Positions 3,403-58,551 of a stretch of DNA of 64,000 bases are shown here, in pieces (positions within the stretch are counted from its first letter, which is position 1; every line of letters begins with the position of its first letter). This DNA is from a virus. Lineage: Duplodnaviria > Caudoviricetes. Location: the IMG/VR virus record IMGVR_UViG_3300014205_000181, positions 1 through 64,000 of that record. One strand, given 5' to 3'. The notes beneath the pieces were generated by a model, which was not told the DNA's origin, ran no database searches, and was given only the letters and a program-made list of their open reading frames with translations. Made by a program: the position numbers and the translations under genes.

Positions 3403-3432
3403 CTTATCGGCATAATGTATGCAATACTTTAA
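3403..3432 (-). promoter_or_regulatory. sigma28/FliA-like promoter
   Basis: TTAAAGTATTGCATACATTATGCCGATAAG (TAAA-N16-GCCGATAA). Confidence 0.75.
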
Positions 3433-37268: not shown

Positions 37269-37361
37269 TTTGGGATAGGACGGCCATCCGACAAGTTGAG
37301 AATTCTCCCGCTCAATTTCCCAAATTTAAAATTTACGGGAACATATGGGGATATGTAAATG
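37269..37361 (+). promoter_or_regulatory. Endonuclease-leader RNA motif, copy B
   Basis: P1 TTTGGGA/TCCCAAA; TAGGACGGCCATCCGACA; P3 AGTTGAG/CTCAATT; loop TCCCG complementary to CGGGA at 37336. Confidence 0.75.
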
Positions 37362-39999: not shown

Positions 40000-40087
40000 T
40001 TGGGGATAGGGCTGTACACCTGACAAGAAGACTTAATCCATCTTCTTCCCCAATTTTATTTTAAGGACCATAGGAGGAATAACTATG
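40000..40087 (+). promoter_or_regulatory. Endonuclease-leader RNA motif, copy C
   Basis: P1 TTGGGGA/TCCCCAA; TAGG-N8-CCTGACA; P3 AGAAGA/TCTTCT; loop CTTAA complementary to TTAAG at 40061. Confidence 0.7.
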
Positions 40088-40786
40088 GAAAATGTATTAG
40101 GTAATAGGTACGGAAGATGGATTGTAATAAACAACAATCCGAGTATCAGGACGAAGAAAAGAAGATCGGTCATTTGTCAATGTTCATGTAAAAAGAAAAC
40201 CGTTAGGGAAGTAACTATTGTAGATTTGAAAATGGGTAAATCTAATTCTTGCGGATGTCTCCAAAGAGAAAGGGCAGCAGAATCGAATAGTACTCATGGG
40301 CTTTATAGGCACCCTTTGTATAATATCTGGGGTTTAATGATGGGAAGATGCTATAACAAAAATGGAGTTCAATATAAGGATTGGGGCGGTAGAGGAATAA
40401 TAGTTTGCGATGAGTGGAAATATAATCCCGAATTATTTATAGAATGGTGTTTAGAAAACGGATGGGTTCAGGGATTAGAAATTGATAGAGAAAACAATGA
40501 CGGGAATTATGAACCAAATAATTGTAGATTTGTAACATCTCAGATAAATATAATAAACATGAGATTAATTCAATCAAACAACACATCTGGATATAGGGGC
40601 GTTTATTATAATAAACGCAAAAGAAGTTATTGTTGCCAAATTGGATATAACAAGAAATATATTTTAAGTGAATCTGGCTTCAAAACACCAGAACAGGCGG
40701 CGAAAGCACGGGATATATTTATTATAAAAAACGATTTGCCTCATAAATTAAATTTCCCAGAACTAGCAATTAACGGGCCGCTATGA
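40085..40786 (+). CDS. HNH-AP2 homing endonuclease
   Basis: SCGC, RCY, WGGRGI.VC.EW, IDR.NNDGNYEP.NCRFV, NTSGYRGV. Confidence 0.85.
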   Translation: MENVLGNRYGRWIVINNNPSIRTKKRRSVICQCSCKKKTVREVTIVDLKMGKSNSCGCLQRERAAESNSTHGLYRHPLYNIWGLMMGRCYNKNGVQYKDWGGRGIIVCDEWKYNPELFIEWCLENGWVQGLEIDRENNDGNYEPNNCRFVTSQINIINMRLIQSNNTSGYRGVYYNKRKRSYCCQIGYNKKYILSESGFKTPEQAAKARDIFIIKNDLPHKLNFPELAINGPL

Positions 40787-41394
40787 AAAATATTAATATA
40801 GCAATCGTTTTGCCTGTAAGCTGGGAATATTTACCAATACAATTTTTCAAATCCTGGATAACTTTAAAGAAACCAGAGCACTCTGTCATTATCCCAACGA
40901 GAGGAAGAATTGATGACATGCGGAATGCAGCAATAAACTCTGTGCTTAAAGATGGTAGTTTTAGCCACATTTTATTTTTAGATACAGACCACTTTCATCA
41001 TCCAGACACAATACCAAAATTGCTTTCTCACAATAAACACATTGTATCTGGATTAAGTTTTAGAAGGTCAGAACCGTATGACCCTATAATGTTCGTTAAG
41101 GATTACAAAAAATTTAAAAACATTACAGAGTGGAAAGATGGTGAGTTATTAGAGGTAGATGTAATAGGAGCGGCCTCATTACTCGTAGATGTAGAAGTTT
41201 TTAATAGAATGAAAGCTCCATATTTTGAAATGAACTACCCATATATGGATGGTGTTATTTCAGAAGATTTTGCGTTTTGTTTAAAAGCACAAGAACTTGG
41301 GTATGAAGTCTATTGTGATACAAGTTGCACGAATGATCATATTGGCACTTTGAATATCAATAAAAAAGTTTGGGAGAAATTTTGTGGAAAATAA
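40783..41394 (+). CDS. GT-A fold glycosyltransferase-like protein (paralog 1)
   Basis: HILFLDTD, SED..FC, CDTS. Confidence 0.75.
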   Translation: MKNINIAIVLPVSWEYLPIQFFKSWITLKKPEHSVIIPTRGRIDDMRNAAINSVLKDGSFSHILFLDTDHFHHPDTIPKLLSHNKHIVSGLSFRRSEPYDPIMFVKDYKKFKNITEWKDGELLEVDVIGAASLLVDVEVFNRMKAPYFEMNYPYMDGVISEDFAFCLKAQELGYEVYCDTSCTNDHIGTLNINKKVWEKFCGK

Positions 41395-41707: not shown

Positions 41708-43276
41708 ATGATAACAATAAATGGGTTAGATAGCGATGTGTTTAATGATCGAACTCCGGTAGATTTTACGAGTTTGCCATCTGCTGCCAGTAATAACGGT
41801 GTAGTCCGTAGGTGCAACCCACTTGTTGCAGGCCAGGAGGATTTCTATGTGGTCAGCAACGGAACATCATGGCTGCCATATCACACTAAAAACCGGCCAT
41901 TTATGGATTTGACGTATGCTCGGAAGGTGCAGGCCGCGCCTGTTACAATCACATCAAATGCCACAAACACCTCTGCGACTGCTCCCCTGCTGTGGCCAGC
42001 AACAAACTTTGCTAGCGGAACAAGCAATGTTTTAACCGGTGGAAATTTTACATACACCAGATGCGGTAAAAATGTCAGACCATACTCTGCAACCGGAACT
42101 ACTCTGGTCACTGCCGATACCATTCAGTGGACTACAACCCCTACATATAACCGCTTGGAATTTGGTGTGAGGTTTTATCACACCGGCAGGTATTTGGACA
42201 TTAAAACTGCGAATGGCTTGATGATGGTTAAAGTTGATGGAGAATATACATCGCTAACGCCAATCGCAATCACTGGCATACTGTATAACTACATCGATTT
42301 TGGGTCTGTAGCCACCAGGCTTGTTGAGGTAGTTCTTACATCTGGGCTGTTCGGCGGCGTGTATACGGGGGCCACCGATACTATTTCATCAGCCCCAGCA
42401 AAGGGGCCGAAAACTGTAATAGTTGGCGATTCGTTTTCTGGTGGAACGGGCACATCAGCCGAGATGGGGCTGCGGGGGGCGTTCCCGGCATGGTTTGCTG
42501 ATCTGATTGGATGGGATGACGTAATCGTTTCAGGCATTGGATCAACCGGATATTTGGCGGATGCGTCAGGCGTTGCAACCACATACCGCCAAAGAGTGCA
42601 ACATGACGTGATTGATAACGCCCCAGACGTGATTGTTTTCACAGGTGGATACAATGACAGAGCACAGACAGGGGCGGCTATTTATGCAGAGGCCTGCTTG
42701 CTTTTTAAACAGGTACGTGATGCCCTCCCGTTTGCTGAAGTAATTGTTTTCTCACCATTCTGGTACAAGGGATGCACGTCGTTTAAATCAGCGGCTGCTG
42801 ACATTATACCAATACGTGATGCCCTGAGAGATGCGGCAGCATTGTATAGCTGCCATTTCTGTGACATGCTCGAAATGGATCTGCCTATAGGTACGCCACT
42901 GGCTGCTGCTGGGTTGCTGACCTCGAATATCACGGCTGGAGCAACCACGTTTGTTGCTGATACACTTTTCGCAGTGCCTGGAACAGTAACCATCGGTACT
43001 GACCGCGTGCGTTATTCATCTGTAAGCGGGACCGGTCCGTTCACCTACACATTACAGAGTGCTGGCACTATTTACCAGGCGCACAGTATCGGCGATGCCG
43101 TGACTCCGGTTGGCAACTCATTTTGGACCGGGACCGGAAATGCCGCTGTGCCTACCGGGATAGGCAACTGCGATCTGATTACCACCTCTGCTGTGGATAT
43201 TCATCCTACCGACACCGGCCACAGGATGATCGGAGAGTATGTGGCGAAGAGGTTGCATGAGATATTGTCACAGTAG
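41708..43276 (+). CDS. SGNH/GDSL hydrolase-domain protein, probably virion-associated
   Basis: VGDSF, G.GSTGY, GGYND, DIHPTDTGH; visibly higher GC than flanks. Confidence 0.85.
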   Translation: MITINGLDSDVFNDRTPVDFTSLPSAASNNGVVRRCNPLVAGQEDFYVVSNGTSWLPYHTKNRPFMDLTYARKVQAAPVTITSNATNTSATAPLLWPATNFASGTSNVLTGGNFTYTRCGKNVRPYSATGTTLVTADTIQWTTTPTYNRLEFGVRFYHTGRYLDIKTANGLMMVKVDGEYTSLTPIAITGILYNYIDFGSVATRLVEVVLTSGLFGGVYTGATDTISSAPAKGPKTVIVGDSFSGGTGTSAEMGLRGAFPAWFADLIGWDDVIVSGIGSTGYLADASGVATTYRQRVQHDVIDNAPDVIVFTGGYNDRAQTGAAIYAEACLLFKQVRDALPFAEVIVFSPFWYKGCTSFKSAAADIIPIRDALRDAAALYSCHFCDMLEMDLPIGTPLAAAGLLTSNITAGATTFVADTLFAVPGTVTIGTDRVRYSSVSGTGPFTYTLQSAGTIYQAHSIGDAVTPVGNSFWTGTGNAAVPTGIGNCDLITTSAVDIHPTDTGHRMIGEYVAKRLHEILSQ

Positions 43277-43732: not shown

Positions 43733-45523
43733 ATGATACTTGAATCTTCCATAAAAAGATTTTCTGGGATATCTTCTGATTCCAAGCCAGATACCGATGT
43801 TCCATCTGGTTCTGAATTTTTTGAATTAGACACAGGAAATACTTTTAAATTCCATGATTCATCATGGTACCCATTTGGGATATCGATTAATGATGGTAAT
43901 GGATTTAATATTGGTATAAATAGCCCATTGCCTACTAATGGAGATTCTGTTTATTATAAAGATATTGATTTAGATAGGTGTAATATAACTGGATGGACAG
44001 GGACAGTACTTGATTTATTCACTGGTGTTCATTCTGGTATAGAAAATACAGGTTCTAGTAATCCTAAAACAATTATTATTCATTTTGAAAGAACGATTGA
44101 GTTTGGTTCAGTCACCATAGGTAGTGCAGATGGAGGTAATTTTAGTAATGTCAAAGTGACTGTTAGAAATCCAGGTATAATTGAAACGATAGTTGTAGAT
44201 GAGTCTAGCGATTCCACTAATCTAACAAATAAAACGTATAACTTTGAAGATATACACAGGGTAGAATCATTAAAAATAGAATTTTATACCGCTGATATAG
44301 TTGAAGTAACACAAATATTTATTCCAAAAATTAAAACTGTAAAAATTGACCCAAATAATAAAAGTCACCCTATACATTTTATAGATACTGATCATTCTGG
44401 AAGAGCTGCTCAGAATTCAATTTTTGGAGATAGGATAGTAGGATGGAAAAAAACTTCAATGGCATTCCAATTTAATTATGGCTTTAGAACAAGAGATTTT
44501 ACATTAACACAAACAAATGGAGGAACTGTAACTTCTTCTGATAGTGTTATTATATTATCTACAAGTACGAATGTTGGTGGAGTTGCTGCTGCTGAAACAG
44601 TAGATTCTTTAAGGTATGTCCCAGGTAATGAAGCGTACGCATTTTTTACAGCTATATTTTCTACTCCAAAGGTAAATTCATATCAAAGAGCCGGGATATT
44701 TGACTCTAAAAATGGATTTTTTATCGGGTATGAATGTACTGATTTTAAAATTACTAGAAGAATAAATCAAATTGACTACCCACAAACTATTGATGTTTCA
44801 AAAGTTCTACCATTAGAAGCATTTGATCCAACAAAAGGTAATGTATATAAAATAAGTTTCGGATATCTCGGATTTGCAACAATAAATTTTGAAATAATGA
44901 ATCCAGAGGGAGAATGGAATTCAATTGGGCAGATTGAATTCCCAAATGCATATACTGAGACTAGCATTGCAAGTACAAATCTTCCAATGAGGGGAGAAGT
45001 AGGCAATACAGGTAATAATACAGATATTGTAGTTAAAAGTGGAAGCATTACTGCTGGTATTATTGATGGCGGTGATGATGACCCAAGCGCAAGAAGTTAT
45101 ACATATAGCAGGGGAACTGCCACAATATCTGCTGGAGATAACATGTTGGTTGCTTTTAGAAATATAACTACATTTGCAGGTAGAACGAATAGGGTAAAGG
45201 CAATAGCGCAACTATTGACTTCTGCGACGGAAGGAACAAAGCCAGTTAGGTGGAAGATTGTTTTCAATCCAACATTTACAAATACCCCAACATGGGCAGC
45301 AATAAATTCAGACTCAATAATTGAGTATTCAACAAATGCAACTATAACATTTGGGACTGGAGAAATAGGGACAGAATGGAATATGGCAAAAGCAGATTCA
45401 TTTTTTGAAGATGTAGAATCTCTTGGAGGGCATATGTATCCTGGTCAAACTGCTGTAGTTGTCGTCAATTCTGCTGGATCAAACGATACTGAATTTTCTA
45501 TTAGATGGAAGGAGCTATTTTAA
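43733..45523 (+). CDS. Large beta-rich putative virion protein
   Basis: RYVPG...G.FD..NGFF segment and WKELF terminus; S/T/G-rich. Confidence 0.6.
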   Translation: MILESSIKRFSGISSDSKPDTDVPSGSEFFELDTGNTFKFHDSSWYPFGISINDGNGFNIGINSPLPTNGDSVYYKDIDLDRCNITGWTGTVLDLFTGVHSGIENTGSSNPKTIIIHFERTIEFGSVTIGSADGGNFSNVKVTVRNPGIIETIVVDESSDSTNLTNKTYNFEDIHRVESLKIEFYTADIVEVTQIFIPKIKTVKIDPNNKSHPIHFIDTDHSGRAAQNSIFGDRIVGWKKTSMAFQFNYGFRTRDFTLTQTNGGTVTSSDSVIILSTSTNVGGVAAAETVDSLRYVPGNEAYAFFTAIFSTPKVNSYQRAGIFDSKNGFFIGYECTDFKITRRINQIDYPQTIDVSKVLPLEAFDPTKGNVYKISFGYLGFATINFEIMNPEGEWNSIGQIEFPNAYTETSIASTNLPMRGEVGNTGNNTDIVVKSGSITAGIIDGGDDDPSARSYTYSRGTATISAGDNMLVAFRNITTFAGRTNRVKAIAQLLTSATEGTKPVRWKIVFNPTFTNTPTWAAINSDSIIEYSTNATITFGTGEIGTEWNMAKADSFFEDVESLGGHMYPGQTAVVVVNSAGSNDTEFSIRWKELF

Positions 45524-47161: not shown

Positions 47162-47626
47162 ATGGCAAGAGTTACCTGGAATAGTAAACAAGTTATAGAT
47201 TCTATAAAAGCAACTCAATCACAGTCGATGAATGACGCTTGTGAATTTTTAAGTGATAAAATAAAGGATTCCATGAAGCCTGGAACTGGTAGATGGTGGC
47301 CTTCTAAAAAGGGCGATGGCTCTTTACACCAAGCTTCGATCCCTAATACAGCACCAGCCCCAGATACGGAAGAATTGAAAAATTCAATTTCTTGGGCGGC
47401 ATCAACTGGTAGTAGCGGTGGGGGAGAAGGTAGTGAAAAAGTAACCGCACCTTTTTACGGCGCGAATACCAATATCATTGCTGGGAAAATAGGAACAACT
47501 AACGGAAAAGGTATTCTCCATGAGATGGCTTGGACGATTGACGGAGCTAAAAGACCGTTTATAAGACCAGCATTCACTGAAAGCGAAGATGAATTAATCA
47601 GAATACTTGGGAAAAATAAAATATGA
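47162..47626 (+). CDS. HK97 gp10-like neck/tail completion protein
   Basis: APAPDT..LKNSI; RPFIRPAF. Confidence 0.75.
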   Translation: MARVTWNSKQVIDSIKATQSQSMNDACEFLSDKIKDSMKPGTGRWWPSKKGDGSLHQASIPNTAPAPDTEELKNSISWAASTGSSGGGEGSEKVTAPFYGANTNIIAGKIGTTNGKGILHEMAWTIDGAKRPFIRPAFTESEDELIRILGKNKI

Positions 47627-48045
47627 GTATAAGCGAATTAGCAACAGGGGTATATAATTATTCACAAGTAGCGAGTAATTTTAAAACGAGTATCAATGGT
47701 AGGGTTTATCAAGTTCGTGCTCCTCAAAATCCTACATATCCATTTGTTATATTCTTCTTCCCTGTCGATACCATTACGCATTTTATGAACGAACAAGCTG
47801 TAGCGGCAAATGCAGTATTAAATATTAGTTTACAGTTTAATATTTATTCTCAAAATCAGTCCACAAGTGAAATTAATACCATAGATGGATATTTAACGGA
47901 TAGATTTGATTTCGCTAACTTAACTGTATCTGGATATTATTGCTTTGATTTGTATAGAACTCATAAAATCCCCCCTATGTGGGTAGAAGACATCCAAGGT
48001 TATATTTCTTCCGTAATTTATCAAGTGCAATTACAAAAAAATTAA
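47623..48045 (+). CDS. Tail terminator (DUF3168-like)
   Basis: GRVY..RAPQ...YPFV; QFNIYS; synteny. Confidence 0.75.
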   Translation: MSISELATGVYNYSQVASNFKTSINGRVYQVRAPQNPTYPFVIFFFPVDTITHFMNEQAVAANAVLNISLQFNIYSQNQSTSEINTIDGYLTDRFDFANLTVSGYYCFDLYRTHKIPPMWVEDIQGYISSVIYQVQLQKN

Positions 48046-48070
48046 AGTTTCTGCAATTTTTACCGATAAG
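48042..48070 (+). promoter_or_regulatory. sigma28/FliA-like promoter at the start of the glycan cluster
   Basis: TTAAAGTTTCTGCAATTTTTACCGATAAG (N15); the ATG lies ~7 nt after the -10 box, so the mRNA may be leaderless. Confidence 0.7.
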
Positions 48071-48076
48071 CAATTC

Positions 48077-48703
48077 ATGAAAAATATTAAACTTGCAATA
48101 GCAGTCCCATTAAGTCATAACAGCGTTCCATTACAGTTCTTCGAGTCATATGTAGCGATGTTGAAGCCATGTAGACATATGTTCATTCATGCTAGTAGCT
48201 ATCAAGGTGTCGATCATATGCGCAATCAGTTAATTGAAGGAGCAATAGTATACAATTGTTCACATATATTATTCCTTGATGTAGACCATCGGCATCATCC
48301 AGAAACAATTACAAAACTATTATCTCATAAATTGCCCATTGTCTCAGGTCTTTCATATATGCGCAATGCTGATTATGAACCATGTATGTTTCGTGGGATG
48401 ATAAATAAATATGAAACGATTACAGAGTGGGAAGAAAATTCTTTGGTTGAAGTAGATAGTGTTGGCGCTGCCTGTTTATTAGTTGATATGAAAGTATTTA
48501 ACGACATACAAAGGCCATATTTCAAATTTATGGAAAATCCCGACCCAACTGCAAAATATGGAATAGGAGAAGACGTAGTATTCTGCAATAAGGCAAAACA
48601 AGCAGGATATAAAATTTATGTAGACACAAGCTGTACTAATAAACACATTGGACAAATTGAAGTAGATGGAGATATTTATAAAAAATGGAATGGTGCTAAT
48701 TAA
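48077..48703 (+). CDS. GT-A fold glycosyltransferase-like protein (paralog 2)
   Basis: HILFLDVD, GED..FC, VDTS. Confidence 0.75.
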   Translation: MKNIKLAIAVPLSHNSVPLQFFESYVAMLKPCRHMFIHASSYQGVDHMRNQLIEGAIVYNCSHILFLDVDHRHHPETITKLLSHKLPIVSGLSYMRNADYEPCMFRGMINKYETITEWEENSLVEVDSVGAACLLVDMKVFNDIQRPYFKFMENPDPTAKYGIGEDVVFCNKAKQAGYKIYVDTSCTNKHIGQIEVDGDIYKKWNGAN

Positions 48704-49275
48704 TGTTAAACTATAAAGATGTATACAATAAAGTTTATTCTGAAAAAGATGATTATGGAGACATAAAGCATTCAAGGCCAGATTTAAAAGAAAAAGTTAT
48801 TTTGGACTTTATCGATAACAAAGATGGGACGGTATTGGATATCGGTTCTGGTTCTGGTTATTATTTATCCTCATTGATTAATCATGGAATACACGCCTTC
48901 GGTATAGAAGTTAGTGATATTTGCTGTGAAAAATATCTAACAAGCTTACCACATAAATGTACAGATATAATTAAATATTCTAAATTCAATACCACTCCTA
49001 AATTTGATTATGCAATATGCAACGATTTTATTGAACATATTTATATTGAAGATTTAGACAGCGTGTTAAAATCAATTGTTAAATTAAGTGGCGATTGTTT
49101 ATTTGGAATTGCTAATCACAATGAATTTTTGTGCGGTATGCAAATTCACCAGATAGTCCAAGGTGTTAACTTTTGGATTGAAAAACTAAATGAATACTAT
49201 AAAAATGTAGAATTGGTTTCTATTTTAATGGATTCTAGGTTCTTTTTTGTAAAATGTTCTAACAAAAAAAGATGA
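48703..49275 (+). CDS. Class I SAM-dependent methyltransferase
   Basis: VLDIGSGSG, GIEVS, DFIEH. Confidence 0.85.
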   Translation: MLNYKDVYNKVYSEKDDYGDIKHSRPDLKEKVILDFIDNKDGTVLDIGSGSGYYLSSLINHGIHAFGIEVSDICCEKYLTSLPHKCTDIIKYSKFNTTPKFDYAICNDFIEHIYIEDLDSVLKSIVKLSGDCLFGIANHNEFLCGMQIHQIVQGVNFWIEKLNEYYKNVELVSILMDSRFFFVKCSNKKR

Positions 49276-49362
49276 TATTTCAGAAACTAATGAAGGATTT
49301 TATGACGCTATCAAATCAACTAATACTGATGAGACTAATAATTTATCGGGTGAGTTAATTAA

Positions 49363-50220
49363 ATGAAAATTTTGGTCTTAGGTGCTAGTGGGATGCTTGG
49401 CAGTTCTATGCTAAATGTAATGAGCGAAAATAAAAAATTAGATGTATTCGGAACAGTAAGGGGAAAATCAGATAAGAAATTTTTTACCCAACAAATCCAA
49501 GATAAAGTTCTCCATAACGTAAATATAGAAAATGAAAATACATTAAATGGATTGTTCGTTTCTTTAAAGCCAGACGTAGTTATTAATTGTGTTGGGATAG
49601 TAAAGCAAATTGATGACGCGAATAGTCCGTTAAAATCTATAGCTATAAATTCTTTGTTCCCCCATAAATTGAAATCATTATGCGATTCTTTTGATTCTAG
49701 GTTAATACATATCAGTACAGATTGTGTATTCTCTGGTAAATATGGGATGTATAAAGAAGAAGATGTCTCTGACTGTACAGATTTTTATGGCAAGACTAAA
49801 TATTTAGGAGAGGTTATTTCAGATAGATCGTTAACGATAAGAACCTCTATAATTGGCCCAGAGTTAAAAACGAACCATGGATTACTTAACTGGTTTTTAA
49901 GTCAAGGAAAAGAATGCAATGGGTATAGCAATGCGGTTTTTAGTGGTTTCCCAACTGTAGTATTGTCCCAGATATTAAGAGATATCATTATTCACGATGA
50001 GTCGATTAGTGGGTTATATAACATTGCTTCTGAAAAAATTTCAAAATTTGATTTACTGAGATTAATAGCTGATATTTATAAAAAAGATATTAAAATTAAT
50101 GACTATAAAGATTTTACAATCGATAGGTCTTTAGATGGTTCTAAATTTAATTTAAAGTCTGGGTACATAACTCCTAATTGGGAAAGCATGATTAATACAA
50201 TGAGAGGTATTAATGTTTAG
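49363..50220 (+). CDS. RmlD-like NDP-4-keto-6-deoxyhexose reductase (QnlA/WbvR type)
   Basis: GASGMLG, HISTDCVFSG, YGKTK, IRTSIIG; no C-terminal cupin. Confidence 0.88.
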   Translation: MKILVLGASGMLGSSMLNVMSENKKLDVFGTVRGKSDKKFFTQQIQDKVLHNVNIENENTLNGLFVSLKPDVVINCVGIVKQIDDANSPLKSIAINSLFPHKLKSLCDSFDSRLIHISTDCVFSGKYGMYKEEDVSDCTDFYGKTKYLGEVISDRSLTIRTSIIGPELKTNHGLLNWFLSQGKECNGYSNAVFSGFPTVVLSQILRDIIIHDESISGLYNIASEKISKFDLLRLIADIYKKDIKINDYKDFTIDRSLDGSKFNLKSGYITPNWESMINTMRGINV

Positions 50221-51223
50221 TAACAAAACGGTATTAATAACAGGTGGAACGGGATCATTTGGGAGCGTTGTCGCGAAACGGTTACTGACTAACAACGTAA
50301 AAGAAGTTCGGATATTTAGCCGCGACGAAAAGAAACAAGAAGATATGAGAATCTCGGTGAACGATGCGAGATTGAAATTCTATATTGGTGATGTCAGAGA
50401 TTACGGTAGTGTTGATTCTGCGATGATAGGGGTCAATTATGTATTCAATGCCGCCGCACTTAAGCAAGTACCTTCATGCGAATTTTTCCCAATGGAGGCG
50501 ATAAAAACCAATGTTATTGGTGCCGATAATGTGATGAGTTCTGCAATAAAGAATAATGTAGAGCGGGTTGTTATTTTAAGTACTGATAAATCTGTTTATC
50601 CAATTAATGCAATGGGCATGACGAAAGCTATTTCTGAAAAGGTAATGGTCTCAAAGGCGATGAAACAACGTGCTGGAGAAACGGTATTATGTGCTACTAG
50701 ATATGGTAATGTAATGGCTTCCCGTGGATCTGTAATTCCCTTGTTTGTATCTCAATTAAAAAATAATGAGGAATTAACGGTAACAGACCCAGATATGACA
50801 AGATTTCTTATGTCCTTAGACGATTCAATAGATTTGGTATTTTATGCTTTGATAAATGGTGGACAAGGTGATATTTTTGTTCAAAAGTCTCCAGCATCGA
50901 CCGTGGGTGTTTTGGCCCAAGCATTAAAAGAAATGTTTGCAAAAGATAATAATATAAAAATTATTGGAACTCGACACGGAGAAAAATTATTTGAATCACT
51001 TATTTCAAGGGAAGAGATGGTAAGAGCCGTTGATCATGGGGATTATTATTGTATTAATCCGGATAATAGGGATTTAAATTATAATAAGTATTTCGATTCA
51101 GGAAATACGAATATTGATAAGATACAAGATTACACTTCACATAATACTACTAGATTGAGCATTGAAGAAACTAAAGAATTGTTGTTTTCATTGGATTATA
51201 TTAAGGAAGAGTTGAATGCTTAA
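50213..51223 (+). CDS. fnlA: UDP-GlcNAc 4,6-dehydratase/epimerase (FnlA/WbjB/CapE)
   Basis: GGTGSFG, SRDEKKQ, AALKQVPSCEFFP, STDK, RYGNVMASRGSV, MTRF. Confidence 0.92.
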   Translation: MFSNKTVLITGGTGSFGSVVAKRLLTNNVKEVRIFSRDEKKQEDMRISVNDARLKFYIGDVRDYGSVDSAMIGVNYVFNAAALKQVPSCEFFPMEAIKTNVIGADNVMSSAIKNNVERVVILSTDKSVYPINAMGMTKAISEKVMVSKAMKQRAGETVLCATRYGNVMASRGSVIPLFVSQLKNNEELTVTDPDMTRFLMSLDDSIDLVFYALINGGQGDIFVQKSPASTVGVLAQALKEMFAKDNNIKIIGTRHGEKLFESLISREEMVRAVDHGDYYCINPDNRDLNYNKYFDSGNTNIDKIQDYTSHNTTRLSIEETKELLFSLDYIKEELNA

Positions 51224-52322
51224 GGTGATGACAATTGTTGGGACTAGGCCCGAATTAATAAAAATGTCTAGGGTTATAGATAAATTAGATAAAAATACAA
51301 ATCATATTTTAGTACATACTGGTCAGAATTATGACTATGAGTTGAATCAGATTTTTTTCGACGAACTTAAAATAAGAAAACCAGATTATTTTTTAGAAGT
51401 TGCTGGTGAAAATACAGCACAAACGATAGCAAACATTATCGAAAGAACAGATAAGGTAATAGAGGCAGAAAGTCCAGATGCTTTTGTAATATACGGAGAT
51501 ACCAATTCGTGTCTTTCTGTAATTTCAGCCAAAAGGAGAAAAGTGCCTGTATTCCATATGGAAGCAGGCAATAGGTGTTTTGATCAAAGAGTTCCAGAAG
51601 AATTAAATAGAAAGATAATAGACCAGTTATCTGATATTAATATTGTTTTATCTGATAGAGCTAGAGAAAATCTTGTACTAGAAGGAATAAGACCAGAAAC
51701 TATATTTAAGTCTGGTTCTCATATGAAAGAAGTTTTAGATTACTACATGTCTGATGTGTATAGGTCAGACGTACTAAATAGATTAAAATTAAAAAGTTCA
51801 AGTTATTTTGTGTTTAGTTTTCATAGGGAAGAAAATATTGACGACATAGATAATTTAAAAACTATAATTAAATCGATAAAGGCAGTATCTGCAACATATA
51901 ACCTCCCTGTTATAGTATCCACTCACCCTAGAACAAAGAAAGCATTAGATGATTTAAATATTAGTACAGATGAAAAGATTATTTTTAGTAAGCCGTTTGG
52001 GTTATTTGATTACATAAAGTTGCAAATCAATGCAAAATGTGTTGTCTCAGATAGCGGTACAATAACAGAAGAGAGTTCTCTACTCGGTTTTCCTGCTGTT
52101 ACTATTAGGAATACTCATGAAAGGCCAGAGGGAATGGATAATGGTGTTTTAATCATGTCTGGTGTAGATACTGGGTCAATAATGGATTCGGTAGATGTTG
52201 CTATAAAATGCGGCAAGCCACATGCGATTGATGAATACAATAAACAAGATGTATCTACCCATATATTAAAATTGATATATAGTCATACTGGATACATTAA
52301 TAGAACCGTATGGCATAAATAA
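51216..52322 (+). CDS. Non-hydrolysing UDP-N-acetylhexosamine 2-epimerase (FnlC/QnlB/WbjD type)
   Basis: GTRPE, HTGQNYD, GDTNS, HMEAGNR, SDSGT.EE, ERPEG. Confidence 0.92.
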   Translation: MLKVMTIVGTRPELIKMSRVIDKLDKNTNHILVHTGQNYDYELNQIFFDELKIRKPDYFLEVAGENTAQTIANIIERTDKVIEAESPDAFVIYGDTNSCLSVISAKRRKVPVFHMEAGNRCFDQRVPEELNRKIIDQLSDINIVLSDRARENLVLEGIRPETIFKSGSHMKEVLDYYMSDVYRSDVLNRLKLKSSSYFVFSFHREENIDDIDNLKTIIKSIKAVSATYNLPVIVSTHPRTKKALDDLNISTDEKIIFSKPFGLFDYIKLQINAKCVVSDSGTITEESSLLGFPAVTIRNTHERPEGMDNGVLIMSGVDTGSIMDSVDVAIKCGKPHAIDEYNKQDVSTHILKLIYSHTGYINRTVWHK

Positions 52323-52353
52323 TGATAACGGTTAATGTGTTATTAGTGAAGCA

Positions 52354-53178
52354 ATGAAAAGAATACCTAAGATAGTTCATATGTATTGGGACGGAACACC
52401 TATGTCTAAACTACAGACTTTTACTGTAACTTCTTTTTGTAGGTTAAATCCAGATTGGAAAGTAATAGTACATCTTGATAAATTAAGGTATCGTGGGAAC
52501 AATAAATATATACCTTCCTATGTACGAGAAGATTATTTCCATATAGTGAAGGATAATAAACAAGTTAATATAGATGAAGTAAATCTTTCTGATTATGGCG
52601 TCAGTGGAGATTTACATCCGATATTAAGATCAGATATATTGAGGTATCATTGGCTATATAATGAGGGAGGTGTTTGGTCAGATTTTGATGTTATTTGGTT
52701 AAAACCTATTCATTATTTAAGCACTATAGCTGGAACTGATTCATTTGGGGTTACTTTATGCATGTACGATGGGAAAAAGAAACATCATAATGTAAGTGTA
52801 TTGGTCAGTTCCAAAGGCCACGAATTTTATAGGTATGCCATATATTTATGCAATGAAATAAAAAATAAAATAACAGAAAACCCGGACCATCAGGAGTTCG
52901 GGAATTCAATTTTTAATAAAGCATTCCCTAAGCCTGAAGACGCCTTGAGTAAATTCCCAGATATGATTAATTTAAAATATGAAACATTTTTCCCGTATTC
53001 TATTTTTAATATGGACGCGCTGTATTTAAGTACGGACTTAACGTATATAACAGACTCGGTTATTGGTGTACATTGGTTTAACGGCCACAAGTATAGTAAG
53101 GACTACGTAAATAACAATGGTTTCAGTAGAGATTGTAGTATGACAGAAATCATTAAAAATGAGGGTTATAATGACTAA
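52354..53178 (+). CDS. DXD glycosyltransferase (GT32/Och1-like)
   Basis: IPKIVH.YW, SDILR..LY.EGGVWSDFD, VHWF. Confidence 0.85.
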   Translation: MKRIPKIVHMYWDGTPMSKLQTFTVTSFCRLNPDWKVIVHLDKLRYRGNNKYIPSYVREDYFHIVKDNKQVNIDEVNLSDYGVSGDLHPILRSDILRYHWLYNEGGVWSDFDVIWLKPIHYLSTIAGTDSFGVTLCMYDGKKKHHNVSVLVSSKGHEFYRYAIYLCNEIKNKITENPDHQEFGNSIFNKAFPKPEDALSKFPDMINLKYETFFPYSIFNMDALYLSTDLTYITDSVIGVHWFNGHKYSKDYVNNNGFSRDCSMTEIIKNEGYND

Positions 53179-54004
53179 AAGAAATATTTTTTTATTTAAG
53201 GCAGAAGGAAAAGAAAATTTCGGAGAATACTTATGTAAGAGTGTTATACAAAAGATGGGGTTTGGACTTAATAATTATTCTAATGTTAACCAGATAACAG
53301 AACCAATTGATTATATAATGACTGGGATAGGTGGATTTCTAAACAATGAAATCCATTCTTTATATTTAACTAAAGCCAAGAAGTGGTATGTGTGGGGTAG
53401 CGGAGTTCATTGCATTCCTTTACCTTGGCATAAATTATCGGAAGACATCATAAAGAACAAATGTATTATAACTGCTTTAAGAGGTCCGATGACCAGGGAT
53501 TATTACGGGATCAAAGATGATATTACACTAGGTGATGCTGGCTACTTAGCTTCTTATTTTTTTAAATTCCCAGTAAATGAGAAGAAGAAGAATGTACTCA
53601 TTAATCATCATTATGATAATGTTAAAAAACCGATGAAAGGAATAGATATTCATATATCGTCTTTGATGGACTCAGACATTAATGGTTCTTTTGACAATCA
53701 GTTTAAATACATATTGAATAGTATATGTAACGCAAATATAGTAATGACTAGCTCTATGCACGTAGCTATAGTTGCTTATTCTTATGGTATTCCCTTTGCA
53801 ATGGTAGCCAAGAGAGAGACTGATTTAGTTAAAGAGTGGAAGTGGCATGATACATTATTGAATATGGGCATAACAAAGAAAATAGTATTGTGTGAGAGTA
53901 TAGAAGATGGTTGGGCTTGGTGGAACAGTGTTCAGAAAGATATACGTCCAATTACTAAAGAATATCAGGGAACAATAATAAAGGCATTTCCCGTAATACT
54001 ATGA
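53171..54004 (+). CDS. Polysaccharide pyruvyltransferase-like protein
   Basis: NFGE, WGSG, LRGP.T, GD, TSSMH...AYSYGIP. Confidence 0.8.
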   Translation: MTKRNIFLFKAEGKENFGEYLCKSVIQKMGFGLNNYSNVNQITEPIDYIMTGIGGFLNNEIHSLYLTKAKKWYVWGSGVHCIPLPWHKLSEDIIKNKCIITALRGPMTRDYYGIKDDITLGDAGYLASYFFKFPVNEKKKNVLINHHYDNVKKPMKGIDIHISSLMDSDINGSFDNQFKYILNSICNANIVMTSSMHVAIVAYSYGIPFAMVAKRETDLVKEWKWHDTLLNMGITKKIVLCESIEDGWAWWNSVQKDIRPITKEYQGTIIKAFPVIL

Positions 54005-54822
54005 AGTGTTATTTAGCATATTCAGCAAATCCAGATGTAAGACATAAAGCGTCAACTGGGGGATTTTGCAAAGAATTTTTACGTTTTTGCATAGAGGGGA
54101 AAATAATAGATAAGTCAATACTAACAATTCTTGGAGAAGGAGAAGAAGCTTTAATCCCAAGAACTATAATTACTGATGATATAGAGAAGATAATGTCTAC
54201 GAAGAGTAATTCTATATATGATAAAACTAATCCATTATCCATTTTATCTAGTTTGAATAAAAACGAAAGTTATATTTTTGTAGGTTTGCCATGTCATATT
54301 TACTCAGTTAAAAAATATTGCAGCAAACACAATATCCGAATTATAACAATATCTTTATTCTGCAATCATACATCAGACAATAAATATTATAAAAGTGTTT
54401 TAGATAAAGCAAACCTGAGTGAAATAGATGTAAAACATTTCGAATATAGAGGATCTGGATGGCCTGGGTTTGAAAAAATAATTACCAATGAAGACCAGGA
54501 AATTAAGATTGACCATATAGAGGGATGGGATAATTATGTAAAAAAATATATGCAAATGCTACCAAAATGCAAGGTGTGCACCAGAATGATTTCGGAAGAA
54601 GCAGACATATGTGTTGGCGATGCATGGATGCAAAAAGTATTAAATAACGATAGCAATGGAACTAATATGGTTGTGGCGATGACCACAACAGCGGATAAAC
54701 TTGTAATGGATTGTTGTAAAAGTGGATATATTCATATTGAACATTTAGATATATCTGAATTTGAGGCCCAGAATAATAGGTCTGTTAAAATTAAGAAAGA
54801 TAGAAGAGAGGCTTATGAATAG
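54001..54822 (+). CDS. F420 hydrogenase/dehydrogenase beta-subunit (FrhB)-like Fe-S protein
   Basis: ASTGG, FVGLPC, LFC, YRGSGWPG, CKVC...ADICVGDAW. Confidence 0.8.
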   Translation: MKCYLAYSANPDVRHKASTGGFCKEFLRFCIEGKIIDKSILTILGEGEEALIPRTIITDDIEKIMSTKSNSIYDKTNPLSILSSLNKNESYIFVGLPCHIYSVKKYCSKHNIRIITISLFCNHTSDNKYYKSVLDKANLSEIDVKHFEYRGSGWPGFEKIITNEDQEIKIDHIEGWDNYVKKYMQMLPKCKVCTRMISEEADICVGDAWMQKVLNNDSNGTNMVVAMTTTADKLVMDCCKSGYIHIEHLDISEFEAQNNRSVKIKKDRREAYE

Positions 54823-55675
54823 CTGGAGTATGTCGATCCCTAAGGTTCTCAATTTGTATTGGGGTAAAAATAAACCATTATCTTTTATGAAGTACCTGAC
54901 CGCTTTATCTTTTGTGAAACATAACCCAGATTGGGAGATAATAGTTTATTACCCATCTGTGGTAGAAAGTAAAATATTGTGGGATAGCAATGAACAAAAA
55001 GAATATAATTATGATGACATTGATTATTTTGATAGATTAAGTAATATTAAAAATTTATCTTTAAGGAAAACCGAGTTTGGTGAATTTTCAAACTTATCAG
55101 AAGTACATAAATCAGATCTCATTAGGCTTAAAATATTATCAACATCAGGTGGGGTTTGGTCAGATTTTGATATTTTTTATACAAAATCGATTAATGAATT
55201 CGATCTAAATAATACTGACAATAAATTAAAAGATACATTTGTTTGCTTCACTAGTTATCATAGTATCGGGTTTTTAATGAGTTCTGGGAATAATAAATTC
55301 TTTGAAGAACTATATAAAATGGCAATATATAATATAAAAAATGCTGAAAATCTACAATACCAAAATTTAGGTAGGGATTTATATAATTATTTTTTTAAAT
55401 ATAATGATTATAAAGCGATTAATTATTCAATTAAATTCAATTGTAACATTGCAAACATTACATTTGAAACGGTATATCCACTACAATGGAACCAGATAGA
55501 TTTAATATTTGGCGATAACAAACAGCGATTACCAGAAAATACAGTTGGCGTACATTGGTTTGCTGGATCTCCAATAACATCTAGTGTAGAGAATAAAATT
55601 ACAGAAGAAAATATCCACCTTAATAAAGATAAATTCCTTCTAAAACTAATGTGTGAATTACTTGAAGAAATATAG
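54815..55675 (+). CDS. DXD glycosyltransferase (GT32-like)
   Basis: IPK...YW, KSDLIRL..L..SGGVWSDFD, VHWFAG. Confidence 0.85.
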   Translation: MNSWSMSIPKVLNLYWGKNKPLSFMKYLTALSFVKHNPDWEIIVYYPSVVESKILWDSNEQKEYNYDDIDYFDRLSNIKNLSLRKTEFGEFSNLSEVHKSDLIRLKILSTSGGVWSDFDIFYTKSINEFDLNNTDNKLKDTFVCFTSYHSIGFLMSSGNNKFFEELYKMAIYNIKNAENLQYQNLGRDLYNYFFKYNDYKAINYSIKFNCNIANITFETVYPLQWNQIDLIFGDNKQRLPENTVGVHWFAGSPITSSVENKITEENIHLNKDKFLLKLMCELLEEI

Positions 55676-56462
55676 TATTGTGTTTCCTTATTATAAAAGA
55701 TCTAGTCAACTCCATAATTCACTTATTTCGTTCCAACATCACTATAAAGATAGAAATGATTATGAAGTAATTGTCGTTGAAGATATTAAAAACTATAATA
55801 ATGCAGAAGAACACGAAAAACTATTAAAAGTATTAAAGTTTTATACACAAAATGCCGATAAGGTAGTTAATATAAAACTGATAAAATCGAGCTTTGAGAA
55901 TTGTTATAATCCAGCTCCTTTATTTAATTTAGGAGTGAAAAACGCTAGTGGCGAATATTTAATTATAACAAATCCAGAGATATTCCATAAAGATAATATA
56001 TTGAGTGCATGTGATGATATATTGTCTAAATACGATGACCATTATATAGTATTTTCTTGCCTTAATGTTGATGAGTATCCTAAAAGTGTATCTGATTTTG
56101 ATGAATTTACTTTTAAACCAAAAATGTGGTATCAACATTTAAAATATAGAAATGCTTTATTCCATTTCTGTTCCTGCTTGTCGAAGAGACAGTATGAAGA
56201 AATTGGGGGATTTGATGAAATATATTCATTAGGTATTGCATACGATGATGACGATTTCAGAGAAACAATAAATAAAGCAGGGATTCAATTCATAGCAACT
56301 GATTCATTTTTAACATTGCATCAAGATCATGGAAGTGTGTTTGATAAATTGCCTGATTATGAAAAGAGATTGAATAGAAATAAAGCGTTGTATTATTTGA
56401 AGAAGCAAAATAAGTCAAGTGAGTATATTAACCAATTTTTAGGAGAGAATTTTGGTGGATAA
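55653..56462 (+). CDS. GT2-family glycosyltransferase
   Basis: SIVFPYY, YEVIVVED, N.GV..A.G, IGGFDE, YDDDDF. Confidence 0.85.
   Translation: MNYLKKYSIVFPYYKRSSQLHNSLISFQHHYKDRNDYEVIVVEDIKNYNNAEEHEKLLKVLKFYTQNADKVVNIKLIKSSFENCYNPAPLFNLGVKNASGEYLIITNPEIFHKDNILSACDDILSKYDDHYIVFSCLNVDEYPKSVSDFDEFTFKPKMWYQHLKYRNALFHFCSCLSKRQYEEIGGFDEIYSLGIAYDDDDFRETINKAGIQFIATDSFLTLHQDHGSVFDKLPDYEKRLNRNKALYYLKKQNKSSEYINQFLGENFGG
55833..55862 (+). promoter_or_regulatory. sigma28/FliA-like promoter inside the GT2 gene, upstream of the major tail gene
   Basis: TTAAAGTTTTATACACAAAATGCCGATAAG. Confidence 0.7.
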
Positions 56463-57135
56463 AGAGAACATCCGTTTGGGAATTGGGCTTCCATTGGTAG
56501 ACGACAAGGTACACACTGCATTTTTAGATTCCTTTGTGATGATGAAGAAGCCAAATTTCGTATATATTAGGCCAACATTCCCATCAATGCAGATTGATGT
56601 AATTAGAAATCAATTGGTTAAGCAAGCATTAGAATCTGGTTGTACTCATTTGTTGATGCTAGATACGGATCAGGTATACCATGACCCAGATATGATTAGT
56701 AAAATGCTGGAACACGATAAAGATGTTGTATCAGCTATCGTACATAGGCGCTATCCTGGCTTTGATCCCATCACTCTAAGGGGTGAACCTGGGAAGTACT
56801 TAATGGTTCCAGATGAAGAAATTTTAGCAGCAAGAGAATTAGATAACCACCTAATTGAAATAGACGCGACAGGTGGAGGTTGTTTACTTTACAAGACTGA
56901 AGTATTTTTAAAAATCCCGCCAGCTTGGTTTGAATTTTCAAGAACTGAAGGCGGCGATGTCATAGGAGAGGATGTAAATTTTTGTTATAAATTGAAGCAA
57001 AATGGATATAAGATATATTGTGATACGTCTATTGATATTGGGCATTTAAGCAATTTAGAAATAAATTGGGCGACATATCGGCTTTACGGCCACTTAAAGA
57101 AACTACAAAAAGAAGATGAAAATAAGAAATTATAA
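56452..57135 (+). CDS. GT-A fold glycosyltransferase-like protein (paralog 3)
   Basis: THLLMLDTD, GEDVNFC, CDTS..IGH. Confidence 0.75.
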   Translation: MVDKENIRLGIGLPLVDDKVHTAFLDSFVMMKKPNFVYIRPTFPSMQIDVIRNQLVKQALESGCTHLLMLDTDQVYHDPDMISKMLEHDKDVVSAIVHRRYPGFDPITLRGEPGKYLMVPDEEILAARELDNHLIEIDATGGGCLLYKTEVFLKIPPAWFEFSRTEGGDVIGEDVNFCYKLKQNGYKIYCDTSIDIGHLSNLEINWATYRLYGHLKKLQKEDENKKL

Positions 57136-57168: not shown

Positions 57169-57585
57169 ATGGCACAAGCATATGCTGGACGTGAAACACA
57201 GGTAACATTGAATGGTGGCACAATTAGTCTTTTAGGGTCTTGGACTCTTAATGGGCAGGAAGTTGAGCTTTTGGAGCAAACTGCTTTCGGAGACACCTAT
57301 CGTCAGTTTTTGCCCGGTTTGAAGAGCGGAGGCACTATTTCTTTTAACGGTTTGTACGATGGCACCGATACTGCGGGCCAAACCGCCCTTCGGAATTATA
57401 ACGCTAACAATACTAGCGTGACTGACATTAAGTTATACGTGGATGATACCAGCTATTATACGCCGAGTACCACAAATCCATTATCATATTGCTGGGTGAC
57501 TGGCTTTGATGTTGGCTCTGAGGTCGGTGGCTTAGTCACTGCTACATTTTCACTCGCCGTGTCTGGCAAGATGGTACTCGTATAA
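57169..57585 (+). CDS. Major tail (tube) protein
   Basis: TAFGD.....PGLKSGG.ISF.G; strong RBS; synteny. Confidence 0.8.
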   Translation: MAQAYAGRETQVTLNGGTISLLGSWTLNGQEVELLEQTAFGDTYRQFLPGLKSGGTISFNGLYDGTDTAGQTALRNYNANNTSVTDIKLYVDDTSYYTPSTTNPLSYCWVTGFDVGSEVGGLVTATFSLAVSGKMVLV

Positions 57586-57599
57586 TAAATTAAATAATT

Positions 57600-57687
57600 G
57601 TGGGATAGGACGGCCATCCGATAAGCATAGACCTAGCTATGTTTCCCACTCTTTACAATTTCTAGGTTTCTGCTAGGAGAAAATATG
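57600..57687 (+). promoter_or_regulatory. Endonuclease-leader RNA motif, copy D
   Basis: P1 GTGGGA/TCCCAC; TAGGACGGCCATCCGATA; P3 AGCATAG/CTATGTT; loop ACCTAG fully complementary to CTAGGT at 57662. Confidence 0.78.
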
Positions 57688-58551
57688 GAAGAATTAAGGT
57701 TTTGTGAATGCAATTGTGGTGAGAGAGTTAAAAATAATAGGTATCGATTTTTATCGGGTCATGCTAAGAATCTAGCTAACCAAGAACCTCCGTTGTGTGC
57801 TTGTAATTGTGGGCAGAGAGTTGAATTTGATCATTGGAAAAATCGGTGGAATAAATTTGTAAATAATCATTACGTCCCTACAGAACAAGCAGTAAAAAAT
57901 ATTTCAAAAGCGAAAATTAAAAGTAACGAAACCAAAAGAATGAATAGGATAAAGGAATTGGGCCATCCTCCTGATTGCGCCTGTGGTTGTGGTGGAAAAG
58001 TATCGATGAATAGGAATCATTCAAAGTGGAACGATTATTTAGTTGGTCATTTCCCAAAGGTTAGAAAAGTATCAGAAATTACTAAACAAAAGTTATCTGA
58101 TATTGGGAAAGAGTTGGTCGGAGAGAAAAATCCATTTTACGGGAAATGTCATTCAAAAGAAACTAAAGAAAAATTAAGTCTATTAGCTATTGCGATGGGA
58201 AAGACAGGAGAAAAAGCTAATAATTGGAAAGGTGGAATACACCCGATCTACCAGACAATAAGAAATTGTGAAAAATATCAATATTGGAGACTTAAAACAT
58301 TCACCAGAGACGGGTTCGCTTGCCAAGAATGTGGAGACACAAAATCCAGGTTTAATGCTCACCACATATATCAATTTAAGCAAATTTTAGATGATTATAA
58401 TATTACCACTCTTGAACAAGCCATAGCATGTGACGCTTTATGGGATATAGATAATGGAATCACACTTTGTAAGGAATGTCATAAAGAATTGCATAAAGCC
58501 ATGAATAAGGCACTACGTAGAAAACAAAAGTTGCTTAAGACTATCAATTAA
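57685..58551 (+). CDS. NUMOD3/HNH homing endonuclease
   Basis: CxCxCG repeats, GEKNPFYGK.HS.ETK, NWKGG, RD.F.CQECG...HH...NGITLC..CH. Confidence 0.88.
   Translation: MEELRFCECNCGERVKNNRYRFLSGHAKNLANQEPPLCACNCGQRVEFDHWKNRWNKFVNNHYVPTEQAVKNISKAKIKSNETKRMNRIKELGHPPDCACGCGGKVSMNRNHSKWNDYLVGHFPKVRKVSEITKQKLSDIGKELVGEKNPFYGKCHSKETKEKLSLLAIAMGKTGEKANNWKGGIHPIYQTIRNCEKYQYWRLKTFTRDGFACQECGDTKSRFNAHHIYQFKQILDDYNITTLEQAIACDALWDIDNGITLCKECHKELHKAMNKALRRKQKLLKTIN

Follow-up and report, generated by a model that had tools for sequence, protein, structure and literature searches.

We analysed a 64,000-nucleotide stretch of a tailed-phage genome (IMG/VR record IMGVR_UViG_3300014205_000181, positions 1 to 64,000; hereafter, the window) that carries an island of eleven predicted glycan-biosynthesis genes ahead of the gene for the tail-tube (major tail) protein. 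The window constitutes the first 64 kb of a 144.5-kb phage contig with a GC content of 35%, which was binned with a 3.7-Mb metagenome-assembled genome (MAG) of 301 contigs. The last gene of the island encodes an Anp1-like glycosyltransferase (GT) of the GT-A type (GTA2, 56452..57135, +; PF03452 8.5e-11), and we found that this gene and the tail-tube gene (57169..57585, +) are a fixed pair, which is new. We consider it probable, if far from certain, that the island is a phage-encoded, cytoplasmic and late-expressed virion glycosylation system whose core target is the tail tube. An earlier reading of the sequence, referred to below as the original prediction, had proposed that a glycan is assembled in the cytoplasm on virion proteins. 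The comparison of relatives lent strong support to this putative function and narrowed it to the tail tube, as the GTA2 clade was tied to the tail-tube family in every locus examined, with variable GTs and methyltransferases ahead of both.

A fixed glycosyltransferase/tail-tube gene pair

Gene order in related phages, which the original prediction had suggested comparing, was analysed in about 200 related phage fragments, and the GT-A/tail-tube pair held in every locus examined. A profile search of IMG/VR with the GT-A family returned more than 574 relatives, and 61 of the fetched loci had a tail-tube gene detectable by BLASTP. In 59 out of these 61 loci the GT gene immediately preceded the tail-tube gene, and in the other two it was located two genes upstream. 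When loci were fetched by tail-tube similarity, a GT was present upstream in all 61 that had a called tube gene: it was adjacent in 55, two genes away in five and three genes away in one, where an endonuclease had been inserted between the two genes. The pair persisted down to 27-35% protein identity, with the surrounding genes reshuffled and homing endonucleases inserted nearby. Its minimal form consisted of terminator, GT and tail tube, and nothing else was conserved beside it. In the GT tree, the enzymes adjoining the tail-tube gene formed one clade, which included GTA2. Two paralogues on the same contig, GTA1 and GTA0, constituted a sister clade that was restricted to the sublineage of this phage. 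GTA1 (48077..48703, +; PF03452 5.8e-7) is the first gene of the island and shares 35% identity with GTA2 (BLASTP 5e-42). GTA0 (40783..41394, +; profile match 2.6e-76, weak PF03452) belongs to the head-neck module and was conserved in the two closest relatives (loci L021 and L024).

The contig carried these three copies of the GT-A family, and none was found elsewhere in the host MAG. Among 185,579 species genomes, only 11 GT-A loci were detected, in MAGs labelled Desulfobacterota, Acidobacteriota, Bacteroidota and others. In six of them a tail-tube gene was called next to the GT, others were cut short or miscalled, and two or three distant ones lacked phage markers. The GT-A family is, in essence, phage-specific. 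The tail-tube family comprised 866 representatives at 50% clustering. Neither a tail-tube homologue nor a DNA-level relative of the contig was found in 50,697 deposited phage genomes, indicating that this phage group lacks a cultured member. Protein fusions between a GT and a tail tube were absent from the 150 best family representatives; the N-terminal extension of one of them (P0334) was not GT-A. Some relatives carried two tandem copies of the tail-tube gene (L072, L080, L099, L197, L198 and L280).

The tail-tube protein, the candidate acceptor, has 138 aa and was assigned by both profile (phrog_158, 1.6e-12) and fold matches to monocin MttP and the phage R4C and lambda gpV tubes (8qhs, 8gtb and lambda gpV). 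Members of its family share the motif Y-x-D/N-x-T-S-Y-W/Y-T-P, after which comes a somewhat Ser/Thr-rich loop whose length varies. In this phage, the motif contributes T94-S95-Y96 and is followed by a Ser/Thr-rich loop at residues 100-102 (S-T-T-N-P at 100-104). Among 99 distinct tail-tube proteins linked to a GT, the Ser of T-S-Y was kept in 98 and replaced by Thr in one, while only 87 of the 150 best family representatives presented Ser or Thr at this motif. Loci with Asn-bearing tail-tube proteins had no GT-A gene (64 out of 64), and their connector genes led straight into the tube gene, much as if the GT had been knocked out naturally. These Asn-bearing, GT-less sequences grouped in one clade of the tube tree, with a support of 0.86 and a single parsimony change. 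Other Ser-less variants were found among Ser-bearing sequences in tree order. When independent contrasts of Ser loss were sought, the scans returned only Ser-bearing relatives, all of them with a GT upstream.

The GTA2 model (predicted local distance difference test, pLDDT, 95) adopted a GT-A fold in which D71-x-D73, E173-D174 and H198 were the invariant residues. Its nearest solved folds were STIV A197, human COLGALT1, the GT domain of LH3, Mimivirus R699, Mnn9 and the ppGalNAc-transferases, which mostly act on proteins. Specifically, STIV A197, COLGALT1, LH3 and R699 share the GT-A fold and the DXD motif with GTA2 and have proteins as their known or presumed substrates, whereas their identity to GTA2 is just 11-19% and their TM-scores 0.6-0.67. 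The phage also differs from the collagen GT systems in having no collagen-like repeats: neither these repeats nor mucin-like tracts were detected in the contig proteins, and no virion protein had a Ser/Thr-rich tail.

The conserved pair could be no more than inherited gene order, with the glycan placed on other virion proteins, such as the tail fibres, the tape measure, a 596-aa virion protein or the head proteins. The most Ser/Thr-rich stretches were indeed found in the 596-aa protein and in a 387-aa head-tail adaptor-like protein, not in the tail tube, and a GT-A paralogue (GTA0) is located in the head module. However, inherited order does not readily account for a pair that is kept at 27-35% identity amid reshuffled neighbours and inserted homing endonucleases, nor for a minimal form of terminator, GT and tail tube with nothing else conserved alongside. 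We regard this explanation as unlikely.

Gene content of the island and its predicted sugar-nucleotide pathway

The eleven contiguous open reading frames (ORFs) of the original prediction were all present between 48077 and 57135 on the + strand, separated by short gaps or overlaps. The family assignments were checked with hidden Markov models, and Pfam and NCBIfam matches agreed for every family listed. The gene order had to be amended in one point, since the pyruvyltransferase and FrhB genes come between the two GT32-like genes, which had been listed together. Altogether, the island encodes five GTs, a methyltransferase, a trio of FnlA, RmlD-like reductase and 2-epimerase, a pyruvyltransferase-like protein and an FrhB-like flavoprotein. 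GTA1 is followed by a class I S-adenosylmethionine (SAM)-dependent methyltransferase (48703..49275, +; PF08242, PF13489) and by the three pathway genes. Next come a GT32-like GT with a Gly_transf_sug DXD sugar-binding region (52354..53178, +; PF04488 1e-8) and the polysaccharide pyruvyltransferase-like protein (PS_pyruv_trans, 53159..54004, +; PF04230 2.5e-8, 34.6 bits against a cut-off of 25.3), for which no solved relative was found by sequence. The FrhB-like protein (54001..54822, +) matched the N- and C-terminal domain families (PF04432 2.1e-27 and PF04422 1.2e-6) and PDB 8riu_B (4.4e-9). Several of its cysteines are candidate Fe-S sites. It may be a partner of the pyruvyltransferase; a search for fusions of both among longer proteins returned none, which is weak evidence. 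The second GT32-like gene (GT32-like/Caps_synth, 54761..55675, +) belongs to the conserved frame, and L021 and L024 have homologues in the corresponding position. Its ORF as listed begins at a TTG (54761), and the ATG at 54815 is more likely the true start. The proteins encoded by 52354-53178 and 54815-55675 are paralogues with 28% identity. A weakly matching GT2-like GT (55653..56462, +; PF00535 E = 0.0016, EpsD 2.1e-6), which is also part of the conserved frame and has homologues of 263-266 aa in L021 and L024, precedes GTA2.

The pathway genes encode an RmlD-like short-chain dehydrogenase/reductase (SDR) of 285 aa, predicted to be a WbvR/QnlA-like 4-reductase (49363..50220, +; PF04321 6.5e-25), an FnlA/CapE/WbvB-type UDP-N-acetylglucosamine (UDP-GlcNAc) 4,6-dehydratase/5-epimerase (50213..51223, +; TIGR04130, 497 bits) and a non-hydrolysing, WecB-type UDP-sugar 2-epimerase similar to WbvD, QnlB and FnlC (51216..52322, +; PF02350 7.6e-85). 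The dehydratase aligned from end to end with solved FnlA (PDB 4j2o, 467 bits) and with CapE from S. aureus (3vvb, 445 bits), and it keeps the DK...M...K typical of its subfamily (STDK...INAMG..K in the alignment), with Met in place of the catalytic Tyr of SDRs; its TIGR04130 score falls below the strict cut-off of that model (730). The epimerase scored 228 bits with TIGR00236, above the curated cut-off of 210. The reductase is a member of a large family of bacterial proteins about 284 aa long, and it shares 50% identity with a cluster containing AAL02994.1 from Rickettsia conorii, which is probably the WbvR homologue of the pso operon. It did not match the FnlB-type model NF047837, and this short RmlD-like 4-reductase stands instead of an FnlB/CapF-type reductase. 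The pathway assignment of the original prediction is thus backed by the homology of all three enzymes. By this homology, the trio should convert UDP-GlcNAc into UDP-N-acetyl-L-rhamnosamine (UDP-L-RhaNAc), the expected product of the reductase, and UDP-N-acetyl-L-quinovosamine (UDP-L-QuiNAc), the expected product of the epimerase, and not into N-acetyl-L-fucosamine (L-FucNAc). In bacteria, WbvB, WbvR and WbvD are cited as the route to UDP-L-QuiNAc (Kneidinger 2003, cited in PMC6765297 and PMC7685785), and Rickettsia have homologues of the three enzymes for the same product (PMC6765297). The phage genes belong to the same three families as this WbvB/WbvR/WbvD (FnlA/QnlA/QnlB) pathway, but they are phage-encoded, unlinked to an O-antigen or capsule export locus and arranged in the order reductase, dehydratase, epimerase. 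The host MAG has a PseB/FnlA-like dehydratase of its own (G000 C78:7090-7935). This is only 40% identical to the phage gene, indicating that the latter is not a recent copy from the binned host. Close FnlA matches among phage records were limited to two unannotated Staphylococcus records with 60% identity, and these are probably host cap genes.

No hydrophobic segment above the threshold, and hence no membrane helix, was found in any of the eleven island proteins. The whole 144.5-kb contig encodes no protein with at least four hydrophobic segments, that is, no multi-pass membrane protein, and no families matching an initiating phosphoglycosyl transferase, a flippase or ABC exporter, or a polymerase were found. 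The lack of flippase, polymerase and initiating transferase noted in the original prediction was therefore borne out by both family and hydrophobic-segment scans. Similarly, no gene of the thymidylate-synthase/hydroxymethylase family (ThyA, PF00303) was detected on the contig or in the MAG. Because export machinery and thymidylate-synthase/hydroxymethylase genes are missing, neither a lipid-linked polymer exported by the phage alone nor a glycosylated hydroxymethyl base is supported.

Further conservation analyses showed that the island is a variable cassette set ahead of the pair. Between the gene for a 140-aa protein (47623..48045, +), whose homologues bound the cassette in relatives too, and the tail-tube gene, there were one to seven genes in relatives and 11 in this phage, counting the GT; ahead of the GT/tail-tube pair, the cassette ranged from none to ten genes. 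Among 47 cassette ORFs scanned, methyltransferases (15) and GT2-type transferases (13) dominated, and the rest included GT32, GT17, TOD1/MUCI70, a GDP-mannose dehydratase and a radical SAM enzyme. In the closest relatives, L021 and L024, GTA2 was 66-83% identical and the island occupied the same place. The shared frame comprised GTA1, the methyltransferase(s), the GT32-like, the GT2-like, GTA2 and the tail tube. Instead of the six genes at 49363-54822, which include the QuiNAc and pyruvyl genes, these relatives carried a radical SAM/SPASM gene and a methyltransferase. The radical SAM/SPASM gene (L021, 6764-7825; L024, 6543-7604), flanked by methyltransferases, may encode a radical sugar-modifying enzyme; the 66% relative presented one methyltransferase only, placed after it. 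A more distant relative had just two GTs ahead of the tube gene. The GC content at third codon positions (GC3) of the cassette genes was 0.23-0.30, like that of the flanking GT genes, and a 97%-identical reductase was listed on eight other contigs. A search of IMG/VR with the reductase sequence did not find the cassette. An assembly chimera is unlikely given the frame that relatives keep on both sides, the GC3 and the reductase on the other eight contigs.

Promoters, alternative acceptors and setting of the island

Two sites that match the sigma28/FliA class 3 consensus (TAAAGTTT-N11-GCCGATAA) were found on the + strand of the island and are putative sigma28-dependent promoters. P1 (TAAAGTTT-N11-ACCGATAA, 48043..48069) is near-consensus and ends 8 nt 5' of the first island gene. 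P2 (TAAAGTTT...GCCGATAA, from about 55833-55838 to 55865), also near-consensus, is located inside the GT2-like coding sequence, about 590 bp 5' of the GTA2 start. It overlaps the residues LKVLKFYTQNADKV of the GT2-like protein, so that one DNA stretch serves as both coding sequence and promoter. Both positions were kept in the closest relatives: P1 just 5' of the GTA1 homologue, and P2 at the same relative place (9371 in L021 and 9176 in L024). Since P2 lies upstream of both genes and the island promoters are kept in position in these two relatives, GTA2 and the tail-tube gene are very probably co-transcribed from P2, as judged from the sequence. The motif TTAAAGTTT...CCGATAAG was also found at 3403 (-), 10547, 12334, 18183, 23863, 25283 and 35070, as well as at 55833 (P2), and more copies occurred along the contig. 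In the window, there were nine sigma28-like sites, preceding unrelated genes. The sigma28-like promoter reported by the original prediction is thus real, but there are two sites instead of one and, because the motif recurs across the window and the contig, they belong to a phage-wide class that is not specific to the island. In more distant relatives, the GT/tail-tube pair was kept but no sigma28 motif accompanied it.

Several observations weigh against a glycan on the tail tube. The synteny of phage structural modules is conserved anyway, and the loci compared are not independent samples. GT-A folds are all alike, so that the fold neighbours of GTA2 do not fix its acceptor and the modelled likeness is suggestive only. 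The correlation between the Ser and the GT is a single evolutionary event and not a statistical proof, because the Asn-bearing, GT-less sequences form one clade. S95 could be conserved for structural reasons, and the tail-tube model, of moderate confidence (pLDDT 73), is too uncertain to place this residue on the surface. The tail-tube protein has no C-terminal extension or mucin-like tract and ends with its last strand. The solubility of the enzymes is compatible with a lipid-linked acceptor, since soluble GTs of O-antigen pathways lack membrane helices as well. Finally, the support for a glycan is entirely comparative, and we infer the enzymatic steps, the acceptor and the production of the glycan itself.

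A rival possibility is that the phage GTs remodel the host envelope, their substrates being undecaprenyl-linked intermediates of the O-antigen or capsule, or else an S-layer protein. The process would then be completed by the flippase and polymerase of the host, and the effect would be a block of superinfection or the release of progeny from debris. O-antigen GTs are commonly soluble or peripheral, as the island proteins are; L-QuiNAc, like pyruvyl and methyl groups, is a typical component of surface polysaccharides in bacteria (PMC7685785, PMC6765297, PMC4616057); and the binned host is a Gram-negative MAG, placed in the Ignavibacteriaceae by the names of its alanyl-tRNA synthetase clusters. 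In contrast, no member of the GT-A family occurs in the host MAG; the family is essentially phage-specific and was in no case missing from phages that have this tail-tube family, while accessory genes are usually sporadic. In addition, the probable co-transcription of GTA2 with late tail genes from P2 would be late for exclusion, and the phage is large, carries tRNA genes and shows no sign of lysogeny in the parts examined. Envelope remodelling thus seems unlikely.

The original prediction had also considered that the island modifies the glycan of the host flagellin. Genes for a flagellin and a FliA-like sigma factor are present in the MAG, and P1 is close to the sigma28 consensus. Nevertheless, the same motif lies ahead of unrelated genes at the nine window sites and beyond, distant relatives hold the GT/tail-tube pair without it, and Pfam and NCBIfam scans of the island found neither Maf nor FlmG nor any other family of flagellin glycosyltransferases. 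A promoter class that is used phage-wide is therefore no pointer to flagellin, and with it the only argument for this alternative was lost, making it highly improbable. Equally remote is glycosylation of the phage DNA as an anti-restriction hypermodification, which would suit phage GTs, best known from DNA glucosylation, and the diverse DNA glycans reported (Pyle 2024, as cited in PMC12619734), but which is at odds with the missing thymidylate-synthase/hydroxymethylase genes and with a location in the late structural operon, by the tail-tube gene in all relatives, and not in a replication module.

The contig surrounding the island reads as that of a large siphophage, with genes for terminase, portal, protease, major capsid, connector, tail-tube and tape-measure proteins, several homing endonucleases and three tRNA genes. 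Upstream of the island, the Neck1/tail-completion gene (47162-47626) precedes that of the 140-aa protein, which matched no Pfam or PHROG family and is called a tail terminator from its place in the gene order only. Of the two flanks named by the original prediction, the major tail gene was verified by profile and fold, while the terminator keeps this positional assignment. The head-neck module harbours an insertion that the closest relatives lack, composed of a 522-aa GDSL/SGNH hydrolase (41708-43276, +; PF13472 2e-12) and the 596-aa virion structural protein (phrog_1645, 43733-45523, +). The hydrolase stretch has about 45% GC against 35% for the phage, and the enzyme may be a virion-borne esterase that deacetylates host polysaccharide. 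HNH/NUMOD homing-endonuclease genes are dotted along the late operon (57685-58551, 37359-38456, 40085-40786 and 30046-31050, all +). One of them is located directly 3' of the tail-tube gene, and in relatives endonucleases occupied this same position or separated the GT from the tube gene.

Proposed mechanism and comparison with known systems

In the favoured explanation, a glycan on the tail tube, GTA2 would act late in infection in the cytoplasm as a soluble, metal-dependent DXD enzyme that adds the first sugar to the tail-tube subunits while the tail is being assembled or earlier. As acceptor, S95 of the T-S-Y motif or the Ser/Thr-rich loop that follows it would be the best candidate. Host UDP-GlcNAc would be the starting point for FnlA, the RmlD-like reductase and the 2-epimerase, which would make UDP-L-RhaNAc and UDP-L-QuiNAc from it. 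The glycan would then be lengthened by the four remaining GTs (GTA1, the two GT32-like and the GT2-like enzymes), using host nucleotide sugars together with either UDP-L-RhaNAc or UDP-L-QuiNAc made by the phage. A sugar would be O-methylated by the methyltransferase, and phosphoenolpyruvate would supply the pyruvyl group attached by the pyruvyltransferase-like enzyme. More speculatively, a pyruvyl or enolpyruvyl group might be reduced by the FrhB-like flavoprotein. For GTA0, encoded in the head module, the substrate may be a head protein.

The variability of the cassette suggests, speculatively, diversifying selection on a surface feature. The 138-aa tube protein is minimal, lacking the Ig-like decoration domain of many tail tubes, and one may speculate that the glycan replaces this domain. 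Taken together, and only tentatively, these phages could be a large uncultured siphophage group with a glycan 'serotype locus', in which an obligatory GT/tail-tube pair anchors a hypervariable sugar cassette and a lineage-specific tail glycan replaces the Ig-like domains. The phage analysed here would then be its most elaborate member, with its own L-QuiNAc and a pyruvylated, methylated glycan, paralleling the giant viruses. The pair is present in hundreds of environmental phage contigs and, if its proposed function is true, sugar-coated tails would be common and old. The variable cassette suggests that phages diversify their surface glycan as bacteria do their O-antigens, which bears on adsorption, particle stability and recognition by hosts or grazers. 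GTA2 and the 138-aa tube protein constitute a simple two-gene system.

To our knowledge, experimental proof of phage virion glycosylation is confined to mycobacteriophages, in which it alters antibody recognition. Specifically, Che8, Corndog and Myrna are described as glycosylating their capsid and tail-tube subunits (Freeman 2023, as described in PMC12363180 and PMC12619734). The island resembles these systems in that phage GTs are encoded within or beside the virion structural genes, act (or here would act) in the cytoplasm and are accompanied by methyltransferases. It differs from them in the host phylum, as the contig was binned with an Ignavibacteriaceae MAG, and in the GT family, which is Anp1-like GT-A. 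In mycobacteriophages, the capsid and tail-tube subunits present a C-terminal acceptor extension, whereas the tail-tube protein described here has none. Unlike in those phages, the GT and tail-tube genes are always paired and are accompanied by a complete nucleotide-sugar pathway and pyruvylation genes.

The nearest parallel in gene content is Megavirus chilensis, whose Mg534-Mg539 genes encode RhaNAc/QuiNAc enzymes, GTs and a pyruvyltransferase for the capsid fibril glycans, in clade-specific cassettes (PMC10117803). Both viruses encode the RhaNAc/QuiNAc trio together with GTs and a pyruvyltransferase, and in both the glycan is, or in the phage would be, destined for the virion surface. However, Megavirus is a giant virus of amoebae that builds fibril glycans, the phage has an FrhB-like gene and a methyltransferase in addition, and the likeness is one of gene content. 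The predicted UDP-L-QuiNAc pathway and the pyruvylation genes of this phage would extend the 'autonomous glycosylation' of giant viruses to bacteriophages.

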